Source: a virus (Duplodnaviria > Heunggongvirae > Uroviricota > Caudoviricetes). Taken from it: DNA of 11,758 nt. Both the position numbers and the translations under genes were made by a program. The notes under the pieces are model-generated. The model was not told the DNA's origin. It saw nothing but the letters and a program-made list of their open reading frames with translations, and did not search any database. Of the stretch, positions 764 to 11,758 are shown one piece after another. The stretch lies in the IMG/VR virus record IMGVR_UViG_2690316233_000014; one strand, 5' to 3'. Position 1 is the stretch's first letter. Each line of letters starts with the position of its first letter.

Positions 764-1171
764 TTATCTTTTATAGCCTTGCCCCTTCCTGGCCAGCGCC
801 CTGATGGCCGGGCGTGCCAACACCATATTTTGGCAATGATGAATTGCCCGGCAAAATTCATCTCTACCCATTGGATGCTCAACTGGCAATGTTAAATACA
901 GGTTCCATGCGTCGCCTAAAAGTTGGGCTATCTTTTGTTCTTCAGATGTCAGCAAGCAAGCGGTATCCGTAAAATAATCATACTTTTCATGTATGTTATT
1001 TAACGGTTTTGTCTGTAGTGCAGCCTGAGCTATACGGTATGCCTGAAGCATACGGGCGTCGTTGATATCCATTCCGAACGGAATTTCTGATGATTGTGAC
1101 TCTGCATCTTCAAGCCTGGCAATTTCTTTACGTAAGAAGTATTTCAACTCTTGTTTCTGTTTTCTGTTCAT
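764..1171 (-). CDS. hypothetical protein, 135 aa
   Basis: ATG at 1171-1169 with AAGGA about 8 nt upstream, TAA at 764-766, and its own upstream and downstream hairpins. Translation is protein-like but I do not recognise a family. Confidence 0.6.
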   Translation of the reverse strand: MNRKQKQELKYFLRKEIARLEDAESQSSEIPFGMDINDARMLQAYRIAQAALQTKPLNNIHEKYDYFTDTACLLTSEEQKIAQLLGDAWNLYLTLPVEHPMGRDEFCRAIHHCQNMVLARPAIRALARKGQGYKR

Positions 1172-1240: not shown

Positions 1241-1264
1241 CATCAGGGCGGATGCGCCCTGATG
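1241..1264 (-). terminator. putative intrinsic terminator after parR
   Basis: 10-bp GC-rich stem CATCAGGGCG/CGCCCTGATG with a 4-nt loop, starting 6 nt after the parR stop (1270-1272) and followed by ACUUUAAU on the - strand. Confidence 0.45.
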
Positions 1265-1269
1265 TTGTG

Positions 1270-1581
1270 TTATTCGGGAAATAACGCCCGGATATTTCCG
1301 GCCATCTGACTGGTTATCTGTGCGGTTGATACTGGCTGTGACGCGGGGCATTCTGTCCTGGTTTGTGTCACTGATAACGCCTCATCGTCAGCCCATGCAG
1401 CCAGTCGGTAAGCCTCTGCTGGATTCATTTTCAGAAGTGCCAGCCCGGCCAGAAAAGCCACGCGTTGGCCGCTTTTGCGGGCTTCTGGTGTAAGGCTGTC
1501 CAGCCAGGCGCATGCTTCGCTTTCGTTCTTGACGGCCGCAGGCTTCAGATAGAAACTTATCCGTCTGGTTGGTGTCGTCAT
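1270..1581 (-). CDS. parR: ParR-like partition adaptor / centromere-binding RHH protein, 103 aa
   Basis: Internal ATG at 1581-1579 preferred over the track start at 1716 (which overlaps parM by 130 nt); strong AAGGAG 7 nt upstream. Sits immediately downstream of parM. Translation MTTPTRRISFYLKP...LDSLTPEARKSG...LAGLAL...LFPE parallels plasmid R1 ParR as I recall it. Confidence 0.75.
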   Translation of the reverse strand: MTTPTRRISFYLKPAAVKNESEACAWLDSLTPEARKSGQRVAFLAGLALLKMNPAEAYRLAAWADDEALSVTQTRTECPASQPVSTAQITSQMAGNIRALFPE

Positions 1582-1585
1582 TGGT

Positions 1586-2545
1586 TTACTCCTTGTCCAT
1601 TGCGTACAGCCCATTAACCAGAGCAAACTGTGGCACCCCGTACGCGATGAAAGTCGCATTAACTCCGCAGGCTTCGCGGATAGCGGGTGCCACAATCTCC
1701 GCCCCGCCACCGACAACCATCACCCGACCGTAACCCGAAAAACCCGCCAGCGCGCGGATCACGCGTTGTTTCAGTGTTTCTTCCTTTTCACGAATAACCG
1801 CCATCAGGCTGGCGTAATGCGCGTCATTGTGGATGTGCTGGCGCAGCCAGGCTTCATCATGGCGATGTTCGATAATGGTATTGGCGATGTGGTGACTGGT
1901 GCGCATACCGTTAGTGGCCATCACCGACAGTACGGCATCGGCCATCAGAGAAACGCCTACGTGTGGATCGCAAAACACCTGGCTGATACCTGCCAGTTGC
2001 CCCTGAACCTTTGCCACATCCAGCGTGGTTCCGCCCAAATCCACAATCAGCAGGGATTCAAACGGACTCATGTCAGCCAGTGCCTTAAAGCCAGCCGGAA
2101 TGGATTCAGGCATAACCCGCACGTTACGGATAGTGAATGCTTCGCCGTTCTGGTACTCCACCGGGCGCATGACGTTCGCTTTTTTGCGGTTGATGTTGGC
2201 CATGTCCGGCTGTGCGTTTGTGTCGAAATACTCGCTCAGTGGCAGGGTGACAACCACATCCACCTCCTGTGGCGTGATGCCTGATTTGACCAGCGCGTGA
2301 TGAATGGCAATGACATTCACATCGCTGTACTGGTATTGCGTGTCGGTCGTCTGGACAAAGCGATCGCTGACCGGATCAAAACCATAGCGCACGCCATCAA
2401 GCATGTAGTTCGCGGGCTGCGTGCCACCGAACGGCGCAGACCATTCCGACTTGAAGCTGTTCGGGCTGATGGCGTTGCGGCGTTCGCCGTTCTCAGTCCA
2501 TGCCAGCTTGATGTTGGTGGAGCCGTCGTCGATACAAATTTTCAT
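1586..2545 (-). CDS. parM: ParM/StbA actin-like segregation ATPase, 319 aa
   Basis: ATG at 2545-2543 with AAGGA upstream, TAA at 1586-1588. N-terminus MKICIDDGSTNIKLAW (actin-fold phosphate-1 motif) plus SPNSF, YQYSDVNV, IHHAL, VMPESIPAG, IVDLGGTTLD and VVGGGAE blocks match plasmid R1 ParM closely as I recall it. Confidence 0.9.
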   Translation of the reverse strand: MKICIDDGSTNIKLAWTENGERRNAISPNSFKSEWSAPFGGTQPANYMLDGVRYGFDPVSDRFVQTTDTQYQYSDVNVIAIHHALVKSGITPQEVDVVVTLPLSEYFDTNAQPDMANINRKKANVMRPVEYQNGEAFTIRNVRVMPESIPAGFKALADMSPFESLLIVDLGGTTLDVAKVQGQLAGISQVFCDPHVGVSLMADAVLSVMATNGMRTSHHIANTIIEHRHDEAWLRQHIHNDAHYASLMAVIREKEETLKQRVIRALAGFSGYGRVMVVGGGAEIVAPAIREACGVNATFIAYGVPQFALVNGLYAMDKE

Positions 2546-2576
2546 GTCGCTTTTCCTTATGTTGATTAATTAATCG

Positions 2577-2615
2577 TTTACGGGATTCTGAAATCCCGTT
2601 TTTGCCTGTTTTGTG
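2577..2615 (+). repeat. hairpin repeat copy 1: TTTACGGGATT-CTGA-AATCCCGT followed by a T-rich tail
   Basis: 8-bp stem ACGGGATT/AATCCCGT (2580-2587 / 2592-2599), 4-nt loop, then TTTTTGCCTGTTTTGTG. Lies between the Rep stop (2622) and the parM start (2545). Terminator-like on the + strand, or a ParR-binding (parC-like) site. Confidence 0.5.
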
Positions 2616-2621
2616 CGCGCT

Positions 2622-5462
2622 TCATATATCGCTGCGCGTTTTTTGGTCATTTACGGGATTCGTGAGTCCCGTTTCTGTCTGTTTTTTGTTTCCGCTGGTC
2701 AGGCCACCCCGCAGCAGGTCTGCTTTGCGGCTGGCGCGTTCAGTGGTTTCACTGATTCTCTGTGCGTGCTCTGCGTCGCGGATGGCGCGCAGCATGTCAG
2801 AAAGCACGGTAACGGGTGTTTTCATGGTGTTCTGGTCCTGCTGAAGTGTGGATGCCAGGCGTGCGGCGGCTTCAGGGTCTGATGCCCCCAGCTGTGCCAG
2901 ATAGCTGGCGACCGGGTTATGGCGGATCTCCGTGCTGCTTACGCCATGATTACGGCTCAGGCGCTGCCAGAGCTGCGTGATTCGGCTGTCCGGGCGGGTA
3001 TCCGGTTTGCGTACAATTTCAAATCCCTGCGGTGCAATGATGCTGCCGTCAACGTACAGACTGCCGCCCCGTAACAGGTGCTGCATCTGTTGTTCACCGA
3101 TATGCAGGCCGAGAGATTCAGCAGACTCCCGCCATTCTTTAGCGAGTAATTCGTGGTTATCAGGCAAAGGCCGCTGCTGTTTGCGGCTCTGTGTCCAGCT
3201 CTGCATTTCATCACTGCTGTTTTTTGCCTGTTTGTCACGAAGCGAATGCATCAGCGCCCGGCGTTCGTGCCGTTTCAGTGAGCGCATCCATTCGTTCACT
3301 TCAACGCCGTCAGGGAGCTGCGGCCACGGTGCTGGCCGTTCTTCCGGCTGTTCTGTCCCGTTGTTGTCCGTTTCCTGTACACGGGGACAGTTATTGCCAC
3401 GAGTCCAAGGGGCGGCAGGGCCGCCCTGAAGGTCAAAACCATTTTCGCGGGCACTGTCTTCCGCTTCCGGTTTGCGTCTTACCAGCTTCCAGTTATCCGG
3501 ATGCGTGCACACACGGGAGGATTCCCCGATGAGTGGTGACCAGATCCCGTAAATCTGTACGCTCTGTTCGCCGTAATCGTTCAGCTCATCGGCGAGGTCG
3601 TAGGCGGTGCGAATCAGGTAGTCCTTGCGTGGAACAAGTACGCCGCCCTGTTTCTCTATGTAGGTGGCAAAACATCCGGCATCAGCGGCGGCAAGAACCG
3701 CATCCATTGCGTCATCCTTCAGCCGTTGCGGGCCTTCCGGGTTGCGTGCCATCTGGCTGGCAAGGCGGCGCAGTTCACGCCATACCTGGCGGGAGGGGAT
3801 GCCAAAGAACTGGAACTGGCGGACCCGGTGAAGGCGCGCCCAGCCGATGGCGCGTTCCACGCTCTCGGCCATTGATTTTCCGGTTTCGTGGTCAACGCGT
3901 GGCTTGCCCGTTTTCGGGTCGATGCCATCCACGGCACGGCTGTCCAGGTTTTTCCCGATGTAGGTGGCGATGTAGCTGGTCGGTGTGCCTTTTGAGCCGT
4001 CGACGTACTCCGCCTTAAAGCGTGGGGTAATATCATCACCCAGCTCGTGACGATCTTCCTGAATGGCAATATCGCGGGTGTGGGACACAATAGTGTCGAT
4101 TTCTTCCGGATGAGCAAAGACCATCATATGCCAGTGCACGGTGCCGTCATGGTGAGGCTCCACCGTGCGGATGCCATACCAGCGCAGGCCGTCGCGGTTC
4201 AGTTTCTTGCGGACCGCCGCAAAAAACGTGTTAACCAGGTAATCGCTGGAGTCGCGCATGGTGGCCCCGTTCCATTTGGGATTCGGATGACCGTTCTCTG
4301 TTGTGGCGTGGTATTTTGACGGGCAGGTGACAGTCAGAAACACCGCTTTGTCGCCACGGGCTTCGGCCAGAAGTTCCAGCCCCTTCATGGTGGCCATCAT
4401 TTCTGCCTTACGGTGAACCGGGTTACTTACTCCCGCGTAATACACTGTCTCGAGATCAATCGTGAACCCATCTTCGTTTTCCAGCATGAAACTTTTCAGG
4501 AAATCGCGTGTTTTCTCGCGCTGTGCGCGAAACTCGCTTAATGCGTCCTGGCTCAGATAGGGCGATGTTTTTCTGGAAACCAGACAGGCGGCGCGGAGTT
4601 GTTCTTCTCTCCACTCGCAACGTAACAGCCACAGTTTGCGTTTCCACCATTCCGCACAGGTCAGGCGAAGGATTGCGCCCGGCAGCAGCTCCGTGTCCGG
4701 TTCGTTCCTCCGGTCTTTATCTGTTGTCAGTGCGTCATAATGTGGAGGCATGATGTGCAGGTGTAACGCCATGCGGGCCAGCATCTGATACGCCTTCAGC
4801 GTTACATCCATGGTCAGTTCGCCATCGGTCGCGCCAAAGCCATCGCAGAGTTTTTCGAAGGTGCTGCTGAACATCGCCGCCGTCATGGTGGCCAGCGTCT
4901 GTATCTGGTGTTTGTTGAGCTGCGGCAGGTAAAGCAAATCGTCCAGGCGTTCGCGTCCGGCAAGGGAGCGATAACCAGGTGTCAGCCAGCGCCCGTCAGT
5001 GCGATCCAGACGTTCGAATATTTTGCGCAGGGTTCCGCGTGTATAGCGTTCCGCCTGCCAGCTCTTTTTGCCTTTCTGACGATCGGCTTCCTGCTTCTTG
5101 CGCAGGAAAGAGAGGTGGCGGCTCAGAGGTTCTCGCAGATAAACGGGAAGCGCCTTCAGTGTGGCAAAGGCACGGGCTACCGGGTCTTGTTCTGTTGCCC
5201 GGCGCTTACTGATGATGCTCTGTGCCAGCTTTTCACGCTGTCCGGCTTCCTCAAGGGATGCCATGAGTTTTTTACCCATGGCGGATTGTGCGAAAAAGGC
5301 TTCTTCCTTCGCTTCCTGTTCTTCCTGTGCCCTTTTGTCCGCCTCAAGGTAGCAACGGATGGCGCGTTGCAGGTCGGTTTCAGTTTCCTGCCTGCGCTCC
5401 GTAAATCTGGCCGGATCAATAGCTGGTCGTGGTTCATTCCAGCTCCATGCAAACGCACTCAT
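2622..5462 (-). CDS. rolling-circle replication initiator, HUH endonuclease of the P2 gpA / phiX174 A type, about 946 aa
   Basis: HUH motif VHWHMMVF (codons near 4128-4136) and paired active-site tyrosines in SYIATYIGK (YxxxY, near 3960-3976). No Walker A motif, so not a P4 alpha primase-helicase. ATG at 5462-5460 forms an ATGA overlap with the upstream stop; the track start at 5489 is GTG. Confidence 0.85.
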   Translation of the reverse strand: MSAFAWSWNEPRPAIDPARFTERRQETETDLQRAIRCYLEADKRAQEEQEAKEEAFFAQSAMGKKLMASLEEAGQREKLAQSIISKRRATEQDPVARAFATLKALPVYLREPLSRHLSFLRKKQEADRQKGKKSWQAERYTRGTLRKIFERLDRTDGRWLTPGYRSLAGRERLDDLLYLPQLNKHQIQTLATMTAAMFSSTFEKLCDGFGATDGELTMDVTLKAYQMLARMALHLHIMPPHYDALTTDKDRRNEPDTELLPGAILRLTCAEWWKRKLWLLRCEWREEQLRAACLVSRKTSPYLSQDALSEFRAQREKTRDFLKSFMLENEDGFTIDLETVYYAGVSNPVHRKAEMMATMKGLELLAEARGDKAVFLTVTCPSKYHATTENGHPNPKWNGATMRDSSDYLVNTFFAAVRKKLNRDGLRWYGIRTVEPHHDGTVHWHMMVFAHPEEIDTIVSHTRDIAIQEDRHELGDDITPRFKAEYVDGSKGTPTSYIATYIGKNLDSRAVDGIDPKTGKPRVDHETGKSMAESVERAIGWARLHRVRQFQFFGIPSRQVWRELRRLASQMARNPEGPQRLKDDAMDAVLAAADAGCFATYIEKQGGVLVPRKDYLIRTAYDLADELNDYGEQSVQIYGIWSPLIGESSRVCTHPDNWKLVRRKPEAEDSARENGFDLQGGPAAPWTRGNNCPRVQETDNNGTEQPEERPAPWPQLPDGVEVNEWMRSLKRHERRALMHSLRDKQAKNSSDEMQSWTQSRKQQRPLPDNHELLAKEWRESAESLGLHIGEQQMQHLLRGGSLYVDGSIIAPQGFEIVRKPDTRPDSRITQLWQRLSRNHGVSSTEIRHNPVASYLAQLGASDPEAAARLASTLQQDQNTMKTPVTVLSDMLRAIRDAEHAQRISETTERASRKADLLRGGLTSGNKKQTETGLTNPVNDQKTRSDI
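2651..2688 (+). repeat. hairpin repeat copy 2: TTTACGGGATT-CGTG-AGTCCCGT followed by a T-rich tail
   Basis: About 35 of 42 positions identical to copy 1 and 73 bp away. Stem ACGGGATT/AGTCCCGT with one G-U pair. Lies inside the last ~20 codons of the Rep ORF. Confidence 0.5.
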
Positions 5463-5848
5463 GGCTGGTATCCCGTCACGCGCTGCCACTCCTGCGAGAA
5501 GAGGGCGGAAAGGCGGTTAAATTCAGCGGTGTATTCACTCAGCGAGGCACACCCGCCAGCAGTGCGATGCGCCAGCATTGCTGCAAATACGGAGGCCGGG
5601 GAGTCGTAATACGCCAGCAGTGATTCGCCGTGCGGTGTCAGGCAGTGTAACGCCAGTCCGTGTGGTGTGAAATCCACGCGGTAGCAGTCGTCTACTGTGA
5701 AATAAAGGGTGTCTGCATTCTCCGGTTTTGTGGTGCGTGCTCTGTTGTCACGACCACGGATGTAGAGATCAAATAACCCCTGAAGAACGGGAGCCAGACG
5801 GGTGTCCTGTGTGCGCACCCATCTTGTGAAGTCATGAGCGTCAATCAT
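5459..5848 (-). CDS. hypothetical protein, 129 aa, translationally coupled to Rep
   Basis: ATG at 5848-5846, TGA at 5459-5461 overlapping the Rep ATG. Family not recognised. Confidence 0.6.
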   Translation of the reverse strand: MIDAHDFTRWVRTQDTRLAPVLQGLFDLYIRGRDNRARTTKPENADTLYFTVDDCYRVDFTPHGLALHCLTPHGESLLAYYDSPASVFAAMLAHRTAGGCASLSEYTAEFNRLSALFSQEWQRVTGYQP

Positions 5849-5920
5849 GCTGCAATTCTCTTTACTACAGATGTGCGAAGGCCTCCCGCCGCAAGGTGCA
5901 GGAAAGGCCCGGAACAGGAA

Positions 5921-6151
5921 TTAATGGAGTTTGTTTTGCTGCTGGATGAGCTGTTGAAGCTCGTGCAGATCATCCGCCAGATAGCTGAAAACAGAGGCGG
6001 AATAAATGTTTGATAGTGCGTGGCTGCGCTCATGCAGCATATTGATGTGCATGATTTGCGCGACGCGTGATGCGCGGGAAAGTCTGCGGTTGATTTCAGT
6101 CTGGATGTGACGACGCTCCGCGATAGCGCGGTGCTGTTTGCGGTCTGCCAT
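5921..6151 (-). CDS. small basic helical protein, 76 aa
   Basis: ATG at 6151-6149 with AGAGG 8 nt upstream, TAA at 5921-5923. Translation MADRKQHRAIAERRHIQTEINRRLSR... is protein-like; preferred over the overlapping Ser/Arg-rich 205-aa track ORF. Confidence 0.55.
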   Translation of the reverse strand: MADRKQHRAIAERRHIQTEINRRLSRASRVAQIMHINMLHERSHALSNIYSASVFSYLADDLHELQQLIQQQNKLH

Positions 6152-6194
6152 GGTGTGGCCTCTTTGCTCGGTGATAGAAATAACTCACCATCCA

Positions 6195-6386
6195 GAGTTG
6201 AGAATCTCGGGGTGGCGAGACGTACAGGGTTCTCAACACCGGAGAGCAAAGAATCCGGCCCGACCGAAGTCGGCCCCGTACGCCCCGCCATAATTCTGAC
6301 GCGAAAAAGACGTGGCAATACAGTACGCACAAAAAAACCGCTTGCGCGGTTATGCGCTTTGCTCTGTATCGGGTTGAGAATCCCGG
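6195..6386 (-). ncRNA. candidate cis-regulatory or small-RNA leader with three related boxes
   Basis: On the + strand, box A GAGTTGAGAATCTCGG (6195-6210) and box C GGGTTGAGAATCCCGG (6371-6386) are 14/16 identical. Box B AGGGTTCTCAACACCGG (6226-6242) is complementary to both over 10-12 bp. A GGCCGAC-UUCG-GUCGGCC hairpin (6257-6276, - strand RNA) and a terminator lie between them. No ORF with a plausible RBS. Confidence 0.4.
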
Positions 6387-6455
6387 CACCCGTTTTATGA
6401 GGTGCAGCGGAAATGTAACCTGACCGATTGAGGCATGGCAAGCGGTTTTTTTGTG
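6328..6455. repeat. perfect 18-bp inverted repeat CACAAAAAAACCGCTTGC / GCAAGCGGTTTTTTTGTG flanking a 92-bp segment
   Basis: Left arm 6328-6345 and right arm 6438-6455 are exact reverse complements. The left arm is half of the - strand terminator; the right arm with CCGATTG...CAAGCGG plus a T7 run resembles a weaker + strand terminator. Confidence 0.55.
6330..6352 (-). terminator. intrinsic terminator or attenuator inside the leader
   Basis: On the - strand: AACCGC-GCAA-GCGGTT followed by seven U residues (GNRA-type tetraloop). Located upstream of the 76-aa, 129-aa and Rep genes. Confidence 0.45.
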
Positions 6456-6473
6456 TGTGCATGTTCTGGTTTC

Positions 6474-6773
6474 TTACTGGTTCAGAAAAAAATCAAAAAC
6501 GTTATCGATGCGTTGCAGCAGCTCTTGCTGCATTGCTTCCGGCGTTTCCGGTTCGCCAGGTGCCCCCAGCGTTGCGCAGAAATCAGCGATTTCATGATGG
6601 AGCGTCAGGCGAATGGCAGGAGCCGTGGTTCTGGCGTGCTCCAGCTCATTCAGCAGTGCCAGCACAGCAGACGGCGAGAGCATTGCGCGAAATGCCAGTA
6701 ATTTTTGAGGCGTTGCCATTCGTTGCAGGGCAAATGCCAGTTCGCGTAGCTTCTGGTGGTTGATGGTGCTCAT
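6474..6773 (-). CDS. hypothetical protein, 99 aa
   Basis: ATG at 6773-6771 in an ATGA overlap with the upstream stop; TAA at 6474-6476. Family not recognised. Confidence 0.6.
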   Translation of the reverse strand: MSTINHQKLRELAFALQRMATPQKLLAFRAMLSPSAVLALLNELEHARTTAPAIRLTLHHEIADFCATLGAPGEPETPEAMQQELLQRIDNVFDFFLNQ

Positions 6774-7036
6774 GCTCTGGCTTCCTTCAGTAGCTGGTTA
6801 AACATGTGAGTAAGTGGATTGCTACACCCGAACGGCATCGGGTTTACGTGGTAAGAAGCCTGGCCTCCTGTTTTGCGAGCGCGACCACCTGTGCTGCGGT
6901 TTGTTCTGATGACTAAGCCGCCGCGCCAAAGTCGGCGTAACTCAGCATTAATGGCTGTGGTTGGGGTGTTCAGTGCTGCGGCGATTTCTCCGCCGCTACA
7001 ACCCGGATGTGTAGTGATGTAGTCCAGAATGGTCAT
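6770..7036 (-). CDS. probable winged-helix DNA-binding protein, 88 aa
   Basis: ATGA overlaps at both ends. The segment SGGEIAAALNTPTTAINAELRRLWRGGLVIRT has a wHTH-like pattern; assignment is by pattern only. Confidence 0.55.
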   Translation of the reverse strand: MTILDYITTHPGCSGGEIAAALNTPTTAINAELRRLWRGGLVIRTNRSTGGRARKTGGQASYHVNPMPFGCSNPLTHMFNQLLKEARA

Positions 7037-7236: not shown

Positions 7237-7259
7237 TGCGCCCCCTTTGTCCAGTAACC

Positions 7260-7676
7260 CTATGCGTTAAATACGGCACGTTGCGCGTCATCAATGAATA
7301 CAGCTTGAGATCGTTCTATCAGGCGGAGATTTGTCAGAAGCTCTGACTCTTTTGTGTGGTAAGGCGTTATCAGGTATTTGCCGTGCAGTTCGGCAATAAT
7401 GGTGTATTGCGTCATTATTGCCGAACCAAGAATGTAAATGCGGCGTCCAATGCTGGACGGATTCATGGCTGCAACTGTTGACTGTGTTTTAAGAGTGTCG
7501 ATTTCTTTGCTCTGTTCCTCAATAATTTTGGCTGCTTCAGAGGGGGCTATTGCGATGGTCAGTGCGTAAAGCGCTGCCATATGTTGATTATCTTTCTGGG
7601 CTGCCCTGGACAGCTTGTCTTGCTCTGCTGACACTATTTTTAATGTATTGATAATATTTTTTTCTCTTGCGTTCAT
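7260..7676 (-). CDS. hypothetical protein, 138 aa
   Basis: ATG at 7676-7674 with GGAG 8 nt upstream, preceded by about 100 nt of non-coding sequence containing repeats. Confidence 0.6.
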   Translation of the reverse strand: MNAREKNIINTLKIVSAEQDKLSRAAQKDNQHMAALYALTIAIAPSEAAKIIEEQSKEIDTLKTQSTVAAMNPSSIGRRIYILGSAIMTQYTIIAELHGKYLITPYHTKESELLTNLRLIERSQAVFIDDAQRAVFNA

Positions 7677-7725
7677 TTTATATCTCCGTTATTTACGTGT
7701 GCGAATACCTCCGCGAATGCGGATA

Positions 7726-7754
7726 GTTTTCAGGTTTTCAGGTTTTCAGGTTTA
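7726..7754. repeat. tandem octamer GTTTTCAG, about 3.6 copies
   Basis: Copies at 7726-7733, 7734-7741 and 7742-7749 plus a partial copy. Sits in the gap between the 37-aa ORF stop and the 138-aa start; the palindrome TCCGCGAATGCGGA (7709-7722) is adjacent. Confidence 0.6.
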
Positions 7755-7776
7755 ATCTGGTGTTTTGTTTAAGCTG

Positions 7777-7890
7777 TTATTTGTCAGTGAAAAAGCGTTC
7801 AATCTTTTTTACTGAATGAATAATTCGCATAATCCCAATGGCGCAGGCCACCGAAATAATCAGAACAAGCCATGAGATAAATATACTCAT
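7777..7890 (-). CDS. small membrane peptide, 37 aa, absent from the ORF track
   Basis: ATG at 7890-7888 overlaps the TGA of the upstream 80-aa ORF (ATGA); TAA at 7777-7779. Hand translation MSIFISWLVLIISVACAIGIMRIIHSVKKIERFFTDK: one transmembrane helix and a basic C-tail. Confidence 0.5.
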   Translation of the reverse strand: MSIFISWLVLIISVACAIGIMRIIHSVKKIERFFTDK

Positions 7891-8129
7891 GCGATATTCC
7901 CCAGCTTATACGGTTCAATGTGTTCCCCGCATTCTGCGGCACAGATCAGCTCGGAAAGTTCGTTCAGTGCATCCAGATCATCAGCGTAAAAAGCAACGTC
8001 ATACAAACTCCGGATTGCCCTGGTCAATGAATCACGGGCTGCATGTTCAGCATGAGCGCCTGATGCACTTAAGCGAAAATAAAATCGTTCAAGTGCTTTG
8101 TTAATGAGAGTTTTATATTCTTTGCCCAT
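7887..8129 (-). CDS. hypothetical protein, 80 aa
   Basis: ATG at 8129-8127, TGA at 7887-7889; fits the - strand operon and is coupled to the downstream small ORF. Preferred over the antisense + strand ORF 7838..8104. Confidence 0.55.
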   Translation of the reverse strand: MGKEYKTLINKALERFYFRLSASGAHAEHAARDSLTRAIRSLYDVAFYADDLDALNELSELICAAECGEHIEPYKLGNIA

Positions 8130-8140
8130 CGCAACGCCCT

Positions 8141-8419
8141 TTAATCTGCTTTCTGAATTTCAGCTTCTGAATCCATACAAATAATTTCGATATAGGGTTC
8201 ATCGCCATTAACCTGACGTGCCTTTTCAGCTTCGCTAATGATTTCTCGTACGGTCTGGTACGGAAGCTCCACAGTCAGGCGCGTACCGTTCAGATAAACG
8301 TAAGTAGCTGCGTTTTTTTCGGATGGAACAACTCCGTCAATTGCTGATGCGCGTAATAACAGTTCACCGCGAAAATCAATAAAACGGATAAATACACCTT
8401 GTGCATGCTCTTTGGTCAT
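8141..8419 (-). CDS. hypothetical protein, 92 aa
   Basis: Internal ATG at 8419-8417 preferred: it lies 10 nt after the upstream stop with AGGTG in between, whereas the track start at 8479 is TTG and overlaps the upstream gene by 50 nt. Confidence 0.55.
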   Translation of the reverse strand: MTKEHAQGVFIRFIDFRGELLLRASAIDGVVPSEKNAATYVYLNGTRLTVELPYQTVREIISEAEKARQVNGDEPYIEIICMDSEAEIQKAD

Positions 8420-8429
8420 AAAGCACCTG

Positions 8430-8780
8430 TTATAAATCAGCCTGTTTAATAAAACTTTGCCCGCGAAGCAGACGATCAACCGTGCGAAGTGCTTCGTATA
8501 ATGTGAAATCCTGCCCGAAGTGATTGTCGCCGCAGTTCAATGCAAAAATGCGGTTTCCGGTAAATGGATTGCGTGGGCATTTGTGGACCACGATTCCAGC
8601 TTTCTCAATCAGCCAGGCATGCTCGCCGATTTGTTTTACAGCGTGGCCATCCGGTGTTGCGTGCGTCTCGTTCAGGTTATAGCGACTGTTACTACGTGAT
8701 GCACTGGTAGCGACGTGGTGTACATGGCGTTCTACGCCATTACGAAATTTGGAGTATGGATTATTAGCGTTTTTTTTCAT
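8430..8780 (-). CDS. hypothetical protein, 116 aa
   Basis: ATG at 8780-8778, TAA at 8430-8432. Verified codon by codon against the track translation. Family not recognised. Confidence 0.6.
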   Translation of the reverse strand: MKKNANNPYSKFRNGVERHVHHVATSASRSNSRYNLNETHATPDGHAVKQIGEHAWLIEKAGIVVHKCPRNPFTGNRIFALNCGDNHFGQDFTLYEALRTVDRLLRGQSFIKQADL

Positions 8781-8801
8781 GATGGTGCTCTGTTCATTGT
8801 T

Positions 8802-9005
8802 TTAGCTGTTAGCCAAAGCGTCTTTTAACATCGCCACAAGGTTTACTTCAGGCTTTTCCATTTTGGCGCGTTTGGGGCGGATAATAATTCGACCGTCAGC
8901 CAACATCTTTTTGCATGTATTAAGAGGGATACCTGTTATCTCTGCATATTTCTGCAGGGATACATAGGGGGCATTCACATTGATATTGATGGTTATACCT
9001 GACAT
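8802..9005 (-). CDS. Cox/Apl-like small HTH protein (candidate excisionase / lytic-side regulator), 67 aa
   Basis: Strong AGGAGG 8 nt upstream of the ATG at 9005-9003. The segment PYVSLQKYAEITGIPLNTCKKMLADGRI follows the pattern of P2 Cox (IPYQEFAKLIGKSTGAVRRMIDKGKLPVI, as I recall it), and its position in the operon divergent from the repressor agrees. Confidence 0.6.
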   Translation of the reverse strand: MSGITININVNAPYVSLQKYAEITGIPLNTCKKMLADGRIIIRPKRAKMEKPEVNLVAMLKDALANS

Positions 9006-9021
9006 CCCACTAGCCTCCTGA

Positions 9022-9228
9022 TCAGGAAGATTTGTTTTGTTCTTTCTGGGTTAGCTCTAGGCCGCGAAGGAAGATCATGCGCGCCATGTTAGAGGATGAG
9101 CGTTGTTCTTTAGCTGCCATTTCATCAATGACGGCTCGCTCCTCGAGGGACAGCCGAAGTGCCAGTCTTGGACCTGTGGCGGTGTTACGCGGAATGCGTG
9201 ATCTGGTATCGTGAAGAACTTGTTTCAT
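9022..9228 (-). CDS. ribbon-helix-helix (Arc/CopG-type) DNA-binding protein, 68 aa
   Basis: RLALRLSLEERAVIDEMAAKEQRSSSNMARMIFLRGLE fits the beta-strand, helix, helix RHH pattern. It is the first gene of the leftward operon; no Shine-Dalgarno before the ATG at 9228, so the mRNA may be leaderless. Confidence 0.6.
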   Translation of the reverse strand: MKQVLHDTRSRIPRNTATGPRLALRLSLEERAVIDEMAAKEQRSSSNMARMIFLRGLELTQKEQNKSS

Positions 9229-9303
9229 AGTGGTATATTGTGATCATCTAATAGCTCGTGAAATCATTTTGGTATCAAAAAAGATACCTGTCAAGGTTTT
9301 TGT
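9229..9303. promoter_or_regulatory. divergent promoter and operator region between the RHH operon and the XRE repressor
   Basis: 75-bp AT-rich gap with an inverted repeat GGTATC-AAAAAA-GATACC (9271-9288), a further TGGTAT half-site at 9231-9236 and a TGATCA palindrome at 9241-9246. Candidate -35/-10 hexamers on both strands are not resolved. Confidence 0.5.
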
Positions 9304-9708
9304 ATGAAAAATGATATTGGTCAGCGGTTGCGTGAGGAAAGGGAAAGATTGGGACTTAGTCAAGTTGCCATGAGCGACATTGGTGGAGTCAAAAAGCTAA
9401 CTCAGCTTAGATATGAGAAAGGAGATAGCTTTCCTGATGCTGCGTATTTGGCAGCGCTGTCTCGTTTTGGCCTTGATGTTCAGTATGTTGTGTTGGGAAT
9501 TCACTCACCTGAAACTTATAACGATGATGAGCAGGAGTTGATTACTCGCTTTCGAGCAGCTTCGTTAGATGTGAAAAACGCGGTGATTGGGGCTTTAAAA
9601 GGTGCGATCAGTGAAAAGGAAACTCAGCCATCAGGACGTGAGTTAAATATTTCTGGTGGTAATAACCGTATCGCTGGTCGTGACTATAACGAAACTAAGG
9701 GTAGGTGA
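9304..9708 (+). CDS. XRE-family HTH repressor (CI/C-like), 134 aa
   Basis: ATG at 9304 with AAGG upstream. N-terminus IGQRLREERERLGLSQVAMSDIGGV is a classic Cro/CI-type HTH. Ends with three tandem in-frame stops TGA TAG TAG (9706-9714). Confidence 0.8.
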   Translation: MKNDIGQRLREERERLGLSQVAMSDIGGVKKLTQLRYEKGDSFPDAAYLAALSRFGLDVQYVVLGIHSPETYNDDEQELITRFRAASLDVKNAVIGALKGAISEKETQPSGRELNISGGNNRIAGRDYNETKGR

Positions 9709-9723
9709 TAGTAGGGAGGTGAC

Positions 9724-10374
9724 ATGGCCGTCAACTCAAACGGTTCAAACAATCGCGTTGCTGGGCGTGATTTTCACGAAAAGAATATTCAGATAGAGCG
9801 ATATGATGGTTCTCATACCGTCAATATCGCAATCCCTTCGAATAATGATGATGACGATCGCCCTTTGCTTAAGGCTCAGCGTAAGGAGCTAAATAGCTTG
9901 GTTGCTGCTATTGCAGAAGCTAGCAATACTGAAGCGTTTATTATTTGGCAAAAAGTACATGCGGAGATTGGTGTAGCTGGTATTGATGATATGACAGTAA
10001 ATCAATATAAAACAGCGGAGAGTTTTCTGCATGCAATGCTTGAGCGATGTAAAGATCATGATGCCTGTAAGGCTCTTGTAAGTTTATTACTACGTAACAG
10101 TGAAGACTGTGGACTTCGACAAAAACTTCTGCGGTATTGCCATATCAATTTCGGTACAGGACGTTTAAACGATCTTACTCGTTCTCAGTTACAGTCTGCA
10201 TTGTCGTGGTTAGAGCAACAATCGGCATCAAGCCACACAGAGAGTTCGACCTTACCAGAAGTCCGACTTCGTGCTTCAGAATTAATCCGACTTTATCCAA
10301 AAGAAATAATATTCTTTATCTGCGTAGGGGTTTTGGTAGGCGGTGTCATTTCTAGGGCGTTTTTTAATTTGTAA
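9724..10374 (+). CDS. tail-anchored membrane protein of unknown function, 216 aa
   Basis: Strong GGGAGGTGA Shine-Dalgarno before the ATG at 9724. C-terminal hydrophobic stretch EIIFFICVGVLVGGVISRAFF. The N-terminal motif SNNRVAGRDFHE echoes GNNRIAGRDYNE at the repressor C-terminus. AT-rich. Confidence 0.65.
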   Translation: MAVNSNGSNNRVAGRDFHEKNIQIERYDGSHTVNIAIPSNNDDDDRPLLKAQRKELNSLVAAIAEASNTEAFIIWQKVHAEIGVAGIDDMTVNQYKTAESFLHAMLERCKDHDACKALVSLLLRNSEDCGLRQKLLRYCHINFGTGRLNDLTRSQLQSALSWLEQQSASSHTESSTLPEVRLRASELIRLYPKEIIFFICVGVLVGGVISRAFFNL

Positions 10375-10403
10375 TCTTACTTGAGCTAAATTGAGGTAAT
10401 GAT

Positions 10404-10751
10404 ATGAAAGTAAAAAATGTTCAACTATTAGTTACTTTTTTATCTATGTTTTCTTTTTCCGCCGTCGCAATGCCTTTTAAAACTATTGAACGTGAGAGTT
10501 TTAATGGGGTATGGCCATTTAATACTGATGAGGTTCAATTACAGTGTCTTGATGGTAATCCTTATGTGATGAATTTTGACGATAATAAGTTATATGCACT
10601 TACAGGTTTGGCTCGAATAAAAGGTAAAACATTTGGTGCGTTACCGTTAGATAACAATAATCCATTTTGGCTAGATAATGATGCCGCCCCAGGGTTAAAA
10701 AAGAGTCTGGGGGATGTCACTAAGGCTGCATTTGATTTATGTGATAAGTAA
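10404..10751 (+). CDS. secreted or periplasmic protein with an N-terminal signal peptide, 115 aa
   Basis: GAGGT 7 nt before the ATG at 10404. MKVKNVQLLVTFLSMFSFSAVA looks like a Sec signal peptide; the mature part has two Cys residues. AT-rich. Confidence 0.65.
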   Translation: MKVKNVQLLVTFLSMFSFSAVAMPFKTIERESFNGVWPFNTDEVQLQCLDGNPYVMNFDDNKLYALTGLARIKGKTFGALPLDNNNPFWLDNDAAPGLKKSLGDVTKAAFDLCDK

Positions 10752-10756
10752 CTAAA

Positions 10757-11758
10757 ATGTCGGTTCGTAAGATTCCATCAGGTAAATGGCTTTGCGAATG
10801 TTATCCCTACGGGGCATCGGGAAAACGCATTCGTAAACAGTTTGCGACAAAAAGTGAGGCGCTCTCTTATGAGCGCCGTTTAATGAATAGTAGAGTTGGA
10901 GACGAGTTTCAAGATGGTTCTGGTCCTCGTCTTTCTGAGTTGATTGCTCGTTGGTTTGAGATGTACGGTAAAACCTTGTCCTCTGGTGCAGAGCGCAAAG
11001 TCAAACTTGAGGCGATTTGTTCCAGGCTGGGAGATCCATTTGCTTCTCAGTTTGACAAAAATATGTTTGCTACTTATCGGGAAAGAAGGCTATCAGGAGA
11101 ATGGAATCCCAAGGGGAAGAAAAAACTTAGTGAAGCAACCGTTAATCGCGAGCAGTCATATCTACATGCTGTTTTTGCCGAACTGAAGCGCCTTGGGGAG
11201 TGGTCTGGTGAAAACCCCCTGACTGGTATTCGCAAGTTTCGTGAGGAAGAAAAGGAACTGGCGTTTCTGTATGTAGATGAGATTGAACGCCTTCTGATTG
11301 CGTGTGATGAGTCACGGAATAAAGATTTGGGGGTTGTTGTCCGTATTGGGCTTGCGACGGGTGCTCGGTGGAGTGAAGCAGAAGGATTAAAGCAATCTCA
11401 AGTACTGCCCGGTCGAATCACATTTGTTAAAACTAAAGGAAAGAAGAACCGCACTGTACCGATTTCACCTCAATTGCAGGCTATGCTTCCTAAAAAACGA
11501 GGAGCGCTATTTTCACCATGTTATGAGGCTTTTGACGCTGCAATTAAGAGAGCGAAGATCGAGCTTCCTGATGGGCAATTAACTCATGTGCTACGTCACA
11601 CGTTTGCCAGTCATTTTATGATGCGGGGCGGAAATATTCTTGTGTTGCAAAAAATACTGGGGCATAGCGATATAAAAATGACTATGCGTTATGCGCATTT
11701 TGCTCCAGGTCATTTAGAGGCTGCTGTTGAATTGAACCCTTTTGACAATAGAGGGTAA
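10757..11758 (+). CDS. int: tyrosine recombinase / phage integrase, P2 Int-like, 333 aa
   Basis: Catalytic signature TGARWSEA ... HVLRHTFASHFM ... GHSDIKMTMRYAHF (Arg, His-x-x-Arg, Tyr). Length and blocks such as ITFVKTKGKKNRTVPIS and LQKILGH parallel P2 integrase as I recall it. Complete; stop at 11756-11758. Confidence 0.9.
   Translation: MSVRKIPSGKWLCECYPYGASGKRIRKQFATKSEALSYERRLMNSRVGDEFQDGSGPRLSELIARWFEMYGKTLSSGAERKVKLEAICSRLGDPFASQFDKNMFATYRERRLSGEWNPKGKKKLSEATVNREQSYLHAVFAELKRLGEWSGENPLTGIRKFREEEKELAFLYVDEIERLLIACDESRNKDLGVVVRIGLATGARWSEAEGLKQSQVLPGRITFVKTKGKKNRTVPISPQLQAMLPKKRGALFSPCYEAFDAAIKRAKIELPDGQLTHVLRHTFASHFMMRGGNILVLQKILGHSDIKMTMRYAHFAPGHLEAAVELNPFDNRG

Follow-up and report, generated by a model that had tools for sequence, protein, structure and literature searches.

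A conserved ParMR-type partition cassette in P88-like prophages of Escherichia coli and its possible service to the transient phage circle

The window analyzed here, an 11,758-nucleotide stretch of Caudoviricetes DNA from the IMG/VR record IMGVR_UViG_2690316233_000014, carries at positions 1270 to 2545 two adjacent genes, parM and parR, that very probably constitute a working ParMR cassette, i.e., a type II, actin-like DNA-segregation system, to judge by their sequences. The element that harbors them is a P88-like prophage (genus Xuanwuvirus, Peduoviridae, P2 family) of E. coli; the window represents its early and replication arm. We propose that the cassette serves the transient extrachromosomal circle of this phage, and we give the statement as a whole, working cassette and role on the circle taken together, an even chance of being correct.

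The genes, and the hypothesis that they maintain a plasmid, are already known: RefSeq names both, PHROGs holds "partition protein" families for both, and Rousset et al. 2022 (PMC9122126) described a partition system in about a quarter of P2-like phages and offered the same plasmid speculation that the initial annotation of this window made. What we add is a case against a plasmid lifestyle that is based on distribution, the cross-genus synteny of the cassette and the selection acting on it, a two-palindrome element upstream of parM, and a link to the partition systems found in integrative and conjugative elements (ICEs) and in the Corynebacterium prophage CGP3.

Results

An intact actin-fold ATPase gene followed by an adaptor gene

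Pfam domains, a PDB match, and sequence motifs all identify parM (stbA; 1586-2545, minus strand) as the gene of an actin-fold ATPase of 319 amino acids. Residues 1-157 of its product match StbA_N (1.8e-82), and residues 159-316 match PF21523, the C-terminal domain of ParM (2.9e-68). The product also matches the ParM of plasmid R1 in the PDB over 315 residues (2-316; E = 1.1e-92), in an end-to-end alignment with 46.7% identity. The nucleotide-binding motifs IDDGSTNIK (phosphate-1), MPESIPAG (catalytic), VDLGGTTLD (phosphate-2), and VGGGAE (adenosine) are all kept, at residues 5, 145, 168, and 278, which are the R1-equivalent positions. The window ParM is, in short, an actin-fold ATPase with intact nucleotide-binding motifs, as a type II partition system has. 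A Shine-Dalgarno sequence, AAGGA, precedes the gene at 2554-2558.

Directly downstream and in the same orientation lies parR (stbB; 1270-1581, minus strand), for which Pfam (Plasmid_stab_B, 4.3e-24), PHROGs (phrog_2515, "partition protein," 1.5e-57), and homolog alignment indicate a StbB-family adaptor of 103 amino acids. Its best reading starts with the ATG at 1581 and stops at 1270, a 312-nt coding sequence that RefSeq annotates identically in relatives; a longer frame opening with TTG (1270-1716) was rejected as an unlikely gene that runs into parM. From the sequence we read AAGGAG (1589-1594, minus strand) as the parR ribosome-binding site. It abuts the TAA of parM (1586-1588), and 7 nt separate its end from the parR ATG, while the two genes are only 4 nt apart. 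This placement and the short gap make translational coupling of parM and parR plausible, and they give the cassette the small, co-oriented, coupled adaptor gene that is found directly downstream of the ATPase gene in type II systems. The initial annotation had called both homologs intact and coupled, with AAGGAG overlapping the parM stop: The two intact genes lie exactly where it placed them and the comparison with R1 that it suggested revealed no loss of ATPase motifs, whereas the AAGGAG touches the stop codon without overlapping it.

In the homolog alignment, ParR has an N-terminal RRISFYLKP strand and two helices, and its conserved C-terminal tail, NIRALFPE, is separated from them by a hypervariable linker. 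This layout is expected of an adaptor that would hold DNA with one end and ParM with the opposite one. All five genera in which we found the cassette (see below) keep the tail pattern N-I-x-x-L/F-F-P-D/E in their phage ParRs, and the ParR of an IncI1 plasmid has the same tail; the StbB of the phage-plasmid D6 is looser here (NLADSLPD). The N-terminal strand is invariant in E. coli and Plesiomonas; Hafnia has RRVSFYLKP instead, and Serratia and Enterobacter both have RKISFYLKP. This conserved strand would be the part that reads DNA, which agrees with the GGGA core shared by the candidate sites described below. Among 89 P88-like loci, ParR occurs in two N-terminal alleles (61 of class I and 25 of class II), and its linker is hypervariable while ParM stays 96 to 100% identical. 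A sequence search of the PDB with ParR gave zero matches, even at E = 10.

Paired palindromes upstream of parM and the likely route of expression

A candidate centromere and operator (parC) lies upstream of parM in the form of two 42-nt direct repeats on the minus strand. The proximal copy (2574-2615; palindrome core at 2582-2597) occupies the spacer between parM and rep, the replication gene directly upstream, and the distal copy (2647-2688), which is 81% identical to the proximal one, falls within the last codons of rep. A repeat search revealed that each copy contains the palindrome ACGGGATT-N4-AATCCCGT and that the copies are 73 bp apart. The pattern GGGAYT-N4-RRTCCC occurs 2 times in the whole window versus 0.01 times expected by chance, and across 86 P88-like loci the palindrome arms are conserved and the central four bases are variable.

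Related elements stand at the same place in other genera. In Plesiomonas, a related pair of repeats with a spacing of 72 bp lies upstream of parM, and in Hafnia, GGGATT...AAACCC and GGGTTC...AATCCC stand 73 bp apart. In Hafnia, the distal repeat sits not in rep but within an intervening open reading frame of 167 codons (orf167), and hence the repeat element moves with parM and not with rep. For the same reason, an association of the repeats with rep or with a replication origin was rejected, since the Hafnia repeats flank parM and are separated from rep by that frame. Serratia and Enterobacter display a single long inverted repeat, GGGAAC...(26-28 nt)...GTTCCC, in place of the two palindromes. 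A reading of the palindromes as RNA hairpins found no support either, given that their variants are single-sided mismatches or a G-U change at the outermost pair, with zero compensatory pairs. No U-tail follows the palindromes on the coding strand.

A promoter scan found no consensus sigma-70 promoter upstream of parM. The cassette thus has two conserved palindromes at the place where type II systems have a ParR-bound repeat array overlapping the promoter, without a consensus promoter. An alignment of E. coli, Hafnia, and Plesiomonas does reveal a conserved ATTAAT(T/C)AA element, ATTAATTAATCAA (2562-2574, minus strand; 17-29 nt upstream of the parM ATG), which may be a weak -10 region, although this assignment is uncertain. 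Terminator scans predicted no coding-strand terminator between rep and parR. With parMR co-oriented after rep, and with neither a promoter of its own nor an intervening terminator found, the simplest reading is that parMR is co-transcribed with rep, which would tie the production of ParMR to the excision and replication programme of the phage.

Age, synteny, and selection

By comparative measures, parMR is an old, selected phage module and not a recent capture from a plasmid: ParM is intact, dN/dS (the ratio of nonsynonymous to synonymous substitution rates) is low, and the gene order is conserved across genera. A scan of genome contigs with the single ParM returned three loci, all 98 to 99% identical, and a scan of viral contigs with an alignment of the clade returned only P88-like loci at 99 to 100% identity; loci from these contig scans served the population statistics and not the distant context. 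For the latter we relied on protein homologs, whose identity to the window ParM jumps from 92% directly to 63%. Beyond this gap come ParMs of Plesiomonas (63%), Hafnia (62%), Serratia (58%), and Enterobacter (54%), all in P2-family prophages. In these four genera the order is rep, zero to two open reading frames, parM, parR, variable cargo (HicAB, a KAP NTPase, and others), sometimes ogr, and then the portal gene. The ParM homologs that we checked at 53% identity or less stood in plasmid or ICE contexts, together with Rep3, ParAB, or Tra genes.

In a neighbor-joining tree, the E. coli, Hafnia, and Plesiomonas ParMs form a clade with 100% bootstrap support, as do those of Serratia and Enterobacter, and the union of the two clades receives 70%. 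A single origin of the phage ParMs is therefore likely, though not secure. The Serratia and Enterobacter clade is about equally near to some plasmid ParMs as it is to the E. coli phage ParM.

Within the P88-like population, ParM is an intact frame of 319 amino acids in 88 of the 89 loci, the exception being the linear Shigella contig described below, and ParR measures 103 to 104 amino acids in nearly all of them. Pairwise dN/dS amounts to 0.086 for parM and to 0.30-0.38 for parR. The distance between rep and parM is 76 to 92 bp in 85/85 loci, and the distance from the end of parM to the end of the portal gene ranges from 926 to 4432 bp (62 loci). From this spacing we conclude that parMR is a fixed, rep-proximal part of the gpA-gpQ interval and that variable cargo begins beyond parR. 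The gpA-gpQ interval is the hotspot of P2 for which Rousset et al. 2022 (PMC9122126) list a partition system among the cargo, and other cargo known from it (old, tin, retrons, and others) occupies the same stretch between replication and portal genes; unlike such cargo, parMR is invariant and adjoins rep, and the truly variable genes lie between parR and cos/portal. The initial annotation had assigned parMR to the position after Rep where P2-type phages carry variable accessory genes. The position is right, but the fixed spacing and the synteny in four other genera set parMR apart from variable cargo.

The host element is a P88-like prophage

The window is 94 to 95% identical in nucleotide sequence to the Escherichia phages 520873, P88, PhiR44_2, vB_EcoM-569R5, and Chuche over 56 to 78% of its length, and 93% identical to Citrobacter phage PhiSM over 61%. 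Prophages in many E. coli chromosomes are 98% identical to it across 95% of the window. In one of them (chromosomal locus L001), the gene order runs on into P2-type portal, terminase, scaffold, and capsid genes, and at the opposite end the integrase gene adjoins yecA.

Directly upstream of parM and co-oriented with it, rep (2622-5489, minus strand) encodes a gpA-type rolling-circle replication endonuclease of 955 amino acids (Pfam Phage_GPA, 5.5e-132). The Pfam GPA domain covers only residues 194-518 of this Rep, and its long C-terminal part has no domain match. A tyrosine integrase gene (10757-11758, plus strand; Pfam Int_N, 5.2e-32; Phage_integrase, 2.5e-22) closes the window, whose last position is the integrase stop codon. 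All genes from a divergent promoter region at about 9230-9300 to parR point leftward, and a CI-like repressor gene and the integrase gene point rightward; parMR forms the distal end of the leftward block, right after rep. The window itself contains only the 3' end of the portal gene from the structural module. The gpA-type Rep, the integrase, and the identity to P88, together with the structural genes that we read in L001 and in a second locus (L002, the circular record described below), make this a P88-like element.

The neighbors and the P2-like nature of the element that had been read from the window were hence borne out, down to the whole P88-like phage type, and the suggested search for phage structural genes elsewhere in the element located a full P2 structural module in related loci. 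Degeneracy, which would have spoken against the initial annotation, is seen in one gene: The early region and the integrase are intact, whereas positions 1-92 are the end of an IS4-family (ISEc13-like) element. Of the portal gene, the final ~62 codons (93-279) adjoin this element, and the gene is thus disrupted here.

Integration is the normal state

With the parMR segment 1172-2700 as query, we surveyed 5426 complete E. coli genomes and found the cassette in 1308 of them (about 24%). Nearly all of the copies, 1454 of 1456, are chromosomal, and the remaining 2 lie on plasmid records, so that the residence on a low-copy extrachromosomal replicon that is typical of type II systems is not what we observe. 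PLSDB holds parMR at at least 90% identity in 7 of its 72,556 records; the other 1677 matches are ordinary plasmid parM genes with 60 to 80% identity. Five of the seven are large replicons, between 228 kb and 1.4 Mb in size, that contain the integrated phage. A 26.7-kb Shigella "plasmid" could be ruled out as an episomal phage, as it is a linear contig riddled with insertion sequences. The only phage-sized circle of the seven is NZ_CP148288.1 (strain Z1323PEC0009), a circular record of 34,461 bp that represents an entire P88-like genome; besides an integrase gene, a Com/methyltransferase pair, and, close to ogr, a Hok/Gef toxin gene, it has a parMR that is 99.6% identical. This circle could equally stem from spontaneous induction.

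A collection of 50,697 phage records contains ParM homologs in just 14 P88-like records (95.6 to 99.7% amino acid identity) and in the phage-plasmid D6 (47.3%). Citrobacter phage PhiSM, whose ParM is 99.4% identical to that of the window, was experimentally shown to lysogenize K-12 through integration into pdxB (PMC6456863). As nearly all copies are chromosomal and PhiSM integrates, we take the integrated form to be the normal state. Phage structural genes and plasmid maintenance genes do stand on one element in the related loci, as in phage-plasmids; the prophage kept as a separate replicon in lysogens, which also marks that class, is at odds with the two plasmid records, the single phage-sized circle, and the integrated PhiSM. 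The suggestion of the initial annotation that the element can persist extrachromosomally is not supported as a description of its usual state. Genomes with co-resident P88-like prophages point in the same direction: In 2 of 3 such genomes the prophages have the same ParR class, and in one pair the ParRs are identical, which favors an integrated lifestyle because plasmids with a common partition system are expected to be incompatible.

Two database entries deserve mention alongside this survey. In Plesiomonas shigelloides, a phage-sized contig of 32,167 bp (WEKF01000002.1), half of which we read, has its integrase gene 142 bp from one end, and it could be an excised or episomal form in that culture. 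A 226-kb contig labeled Vagococcus sp. WN89Y, a Firmicute (NZ_JBQPOM010000071.1), holds an enterobacterial P88-like ParM locus at 98% identity and is probably a case of contamination or mislabeling.

Other contents of the window

The variable cargo between parR and cos/portal is represented here by orf135 (764-1171, minus strand), which neither Pfam nor PADLOC matches; in PHROGs, the N-terminal half corresponds to phrog_660 and the C-terminal half to phrog_13916 (a 67-residue profile labeled "DNA ligase"). Relatives have ead/Ea22-like genes, an S8 peptidase with an AAA ATPase, or others at this position. A query for the P2 cos site, allowing up to 3 mismatches, found no match in the window.

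On the minus strand between 5921 and 6441, Rfam recognizes isrK (6331-6405) and a C4 antisense RNA (6208-6295), accompanied by promoter-like sites at 6441-6412 and 6318-6290 and by an isrK terminator at 6351-6336. This region is an RNA control module of the P1 immI/Gifsy-1 isrK type in a P2-family early region. Immediately downstream of it come a "derepression protein" gene (5921-6151), orf129, rep, and parMR, and it may gate the transcription of the latter two. The G+C content drops from 0.55-0.60 (1250-7000) to 0.35-0.46 (7250-11758). Two genes of the repressor-integrase arm may serve lysogenic conversion: One (9724-10374) encodes a 216-residue protein without known function, and the other (10404-10751) a DUF2511 protein whose N terminus is signal-like.

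Discussion

How could a partition cassette benefit a phage that resides in the chromosome? Our inferences concern ParR binding at the palindromes, the time at which the genes are expressed, and the benefit to the phage, and they are as follows. ParR dimers would bind the two GGGATT-N4-AATCCC palindromes upstream of parM, whose spacing of 73 bp corresponds to about seven helical turns, and the C-terminal tails of ParR would capture the ends of ParM-ATP filaments, so that filament growth could drive sister circular phage genomes apart. Because the prophage is normally integrated, such an action would be limited to the phase in which the genome is extrachromosomal and copied by the gpA Rep, i.e., after infection or after induction and excision. 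Monomeric circles would thereby be dispersed, positioned, or retained, which may improve replication and packaging, may prevent loss of the genome before it integrates again, or both.

Comparison with known systems lends shape to this proposal. With parMRC (stbAB) of plasmid R1 the window cassette shares a ParM that is homologous over its full length, a small StbB-family ParR downstream, and repeats upstream of parM; it differs in residing in an integrating P2-family phage and in having two palindromes 73 bp apart where R1 has iteron blocks. In the P1-like phage-plasmid D6, likewise, a StbB-type gene comes after that of a ParM homolog (47.3% identity), and the GenBank note of D6 reads "similar to phage P88 StbA." Unlike the P88-like phages, D6 is a circular 91-kb record and a plasmid prophage according to the literature, and its ParM falls among plasmid ParMs in our tree.

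The closest functional analogy is srpMRC of the SXT/R391 ICEs, which reduces the loss of the excised form that replicates by the rolling-circle mode and which stabilizes a mini-F plasmid (PMC4489591). Both systems place an ATPase of the actin type and its adaptor, together with a binding site upstream (a candidate one in the phage), on a normally integrated element. They differ in the element (an ICE versus a phage) and in the replication initiator (the relaxase TraI versus gpA), and SrpM is only distantly related to R1 ParM (PMC4489591). In the Corynebacterium prophage CGP3, AlpAC is induced early and is required for efficient replication of the phage DNA after induction (PMC4446434). It, too, belongs to an integrated prophage and pairs an actin-like protein with a co-transcribed adaptor that binds upstream DNA, whereas the Gram-positive host, the distant actin-like family, and the adaptor gene coming first distinguish it from the window parMR, to which we detected no sequence relationship. 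We favor a role on the transient circle because of the features in common with srpMRC and AlpAC, namely, an integrating element, strong selection, chromosomal residence, and a rolling-circle Rep encoded directly upstream.

An explanation closer to the classical function of such cassettes is that the phage is a facultative plasmid prophage: Where integration fails or attB is unavailable, it would live on as a low-copy plasmid that relies on gpA for replication and on ParMR for partition. This possibility was raised by Rousset et al. 2022 (PMC9122126), and the complete type II cassette adjoining a Rep gene, the PLSDB circle with a whole P88-like genome including integrase and Hok/Gef, and the phage-sized Plesiomonas contig all speak for it. 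We nevertheless regard it as unlikely, given the chromosomal location of all but two copies, the integrated PhiSM lysogens, the identical ParR alleles found within one genome, and the nature of the other PLSDB records at or above 90% identity, which are large replicons or a linear contig. A lone circular contig is, moreover, also what spontaneous induction yields. In addition, rep belongs to the repressor-controlled leftward block, and P2 biology suggests that a quiescent plasmid state would then need Rep to be made without lytic development.

An even smaller probability attaches to an action in trans, in which parMR would be hotspot cargo that destabilizes incoming plasmids or rival P2-like phages through partition incompatibility, or that helps the host. 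Its location in the gpA-gpQ interval, a known anti-phage hotspot, and the allelic diversification of ParR with its hypervariable linker would suit such a role. Against it, parMR is the fixed and not the variable part of this interval and lacks a PADLOC match, its palindromes do not diversify with the ParR alleles, and those alleles are often common to co-resident prophages. Cross-recognition is also unlikely in view of the nearest ParMs of plasmids, ICEs, and phage-plasmids among those we compared, which are at most 53% identical, and of D6 StbB, which aligns only loosely with ParR. Least credible of all, and strongly disfavored, is a neutral hitch-hiker, i.e., a plasmid cassette that was captured by a phage ancestor and has no function. 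While one prophage has indeed lost the cassette without obvious further decay (see below), the parM dN/dS of 0.086, the intact ParM in 88 of 89 loci, and the conserved cis element are hard to reconcile with neutrality, and synteny across five genera down to 54% protein identity contradicts a very recent clonal spread.

Several observations weigh against the proposed role on the transient circle, and some against the assignment of its parts. The literature on ParM in P2-like and P88 phages yielded annotations only, and we found no expression or functional work there. The P88-like prophage of E. coli CUVET19-1704 (NZ_CP115358.1, 3984-4084) cleanly lacks parMR: The edge of the deletion, where homology to the window breaks off, maps to position 2617, a site that falls between the 42-nt repeats, and the next genes after rep are an ead/Ea22-like pseudogene and the portal gene. 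The cassette is therefore not required for chromosomal residence. The palindromes do not co-vary with the two N-terminal ParR alleles, which agrees with an invariant DNA-reading strand yet adds no positive support. Read on the opposite strand, they resemble intrinsic terminators, although transcription of a gene in that direction is not known. The parC of R1 consists of two blocks of five 11-bp iterons, and compared with these ten iterons the candidate centromere of the phage has two sites only. Last, the one 34.5-kb circular whole-phage record leaves room for an episomal state, and if a plasmid state were true, P2-like phages would count among the phage-plasmids.

A broader version of the proposed role on the circle, which we put forward tentatively and consider rather doubtful, is that P88-like phages and their Enterobacterales relatives use a ParM lineage of their own as a viral cytoskeleton, which would move and separate the monomers produced by gpA rolling-circle replication or hold a short-lived, partitioned episome. 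If true, about a quarter of E. coli P2-like prophages would depend on an actin-like machine, a need not known so far from any integrating phage of Gram-negative bacteria.

The cassette occurs in ~24% of complete E. coli genomes and is under strong purifying selection, and its function is predicted only. If it does serve the transient circle, the principle of srpMRC and AlpAC, partition machines for normally integrated elements, would extend to the P2 family, and P88-like phages would provide a tractable model, in E. coli, for actin cytoskeletons that phages encode.

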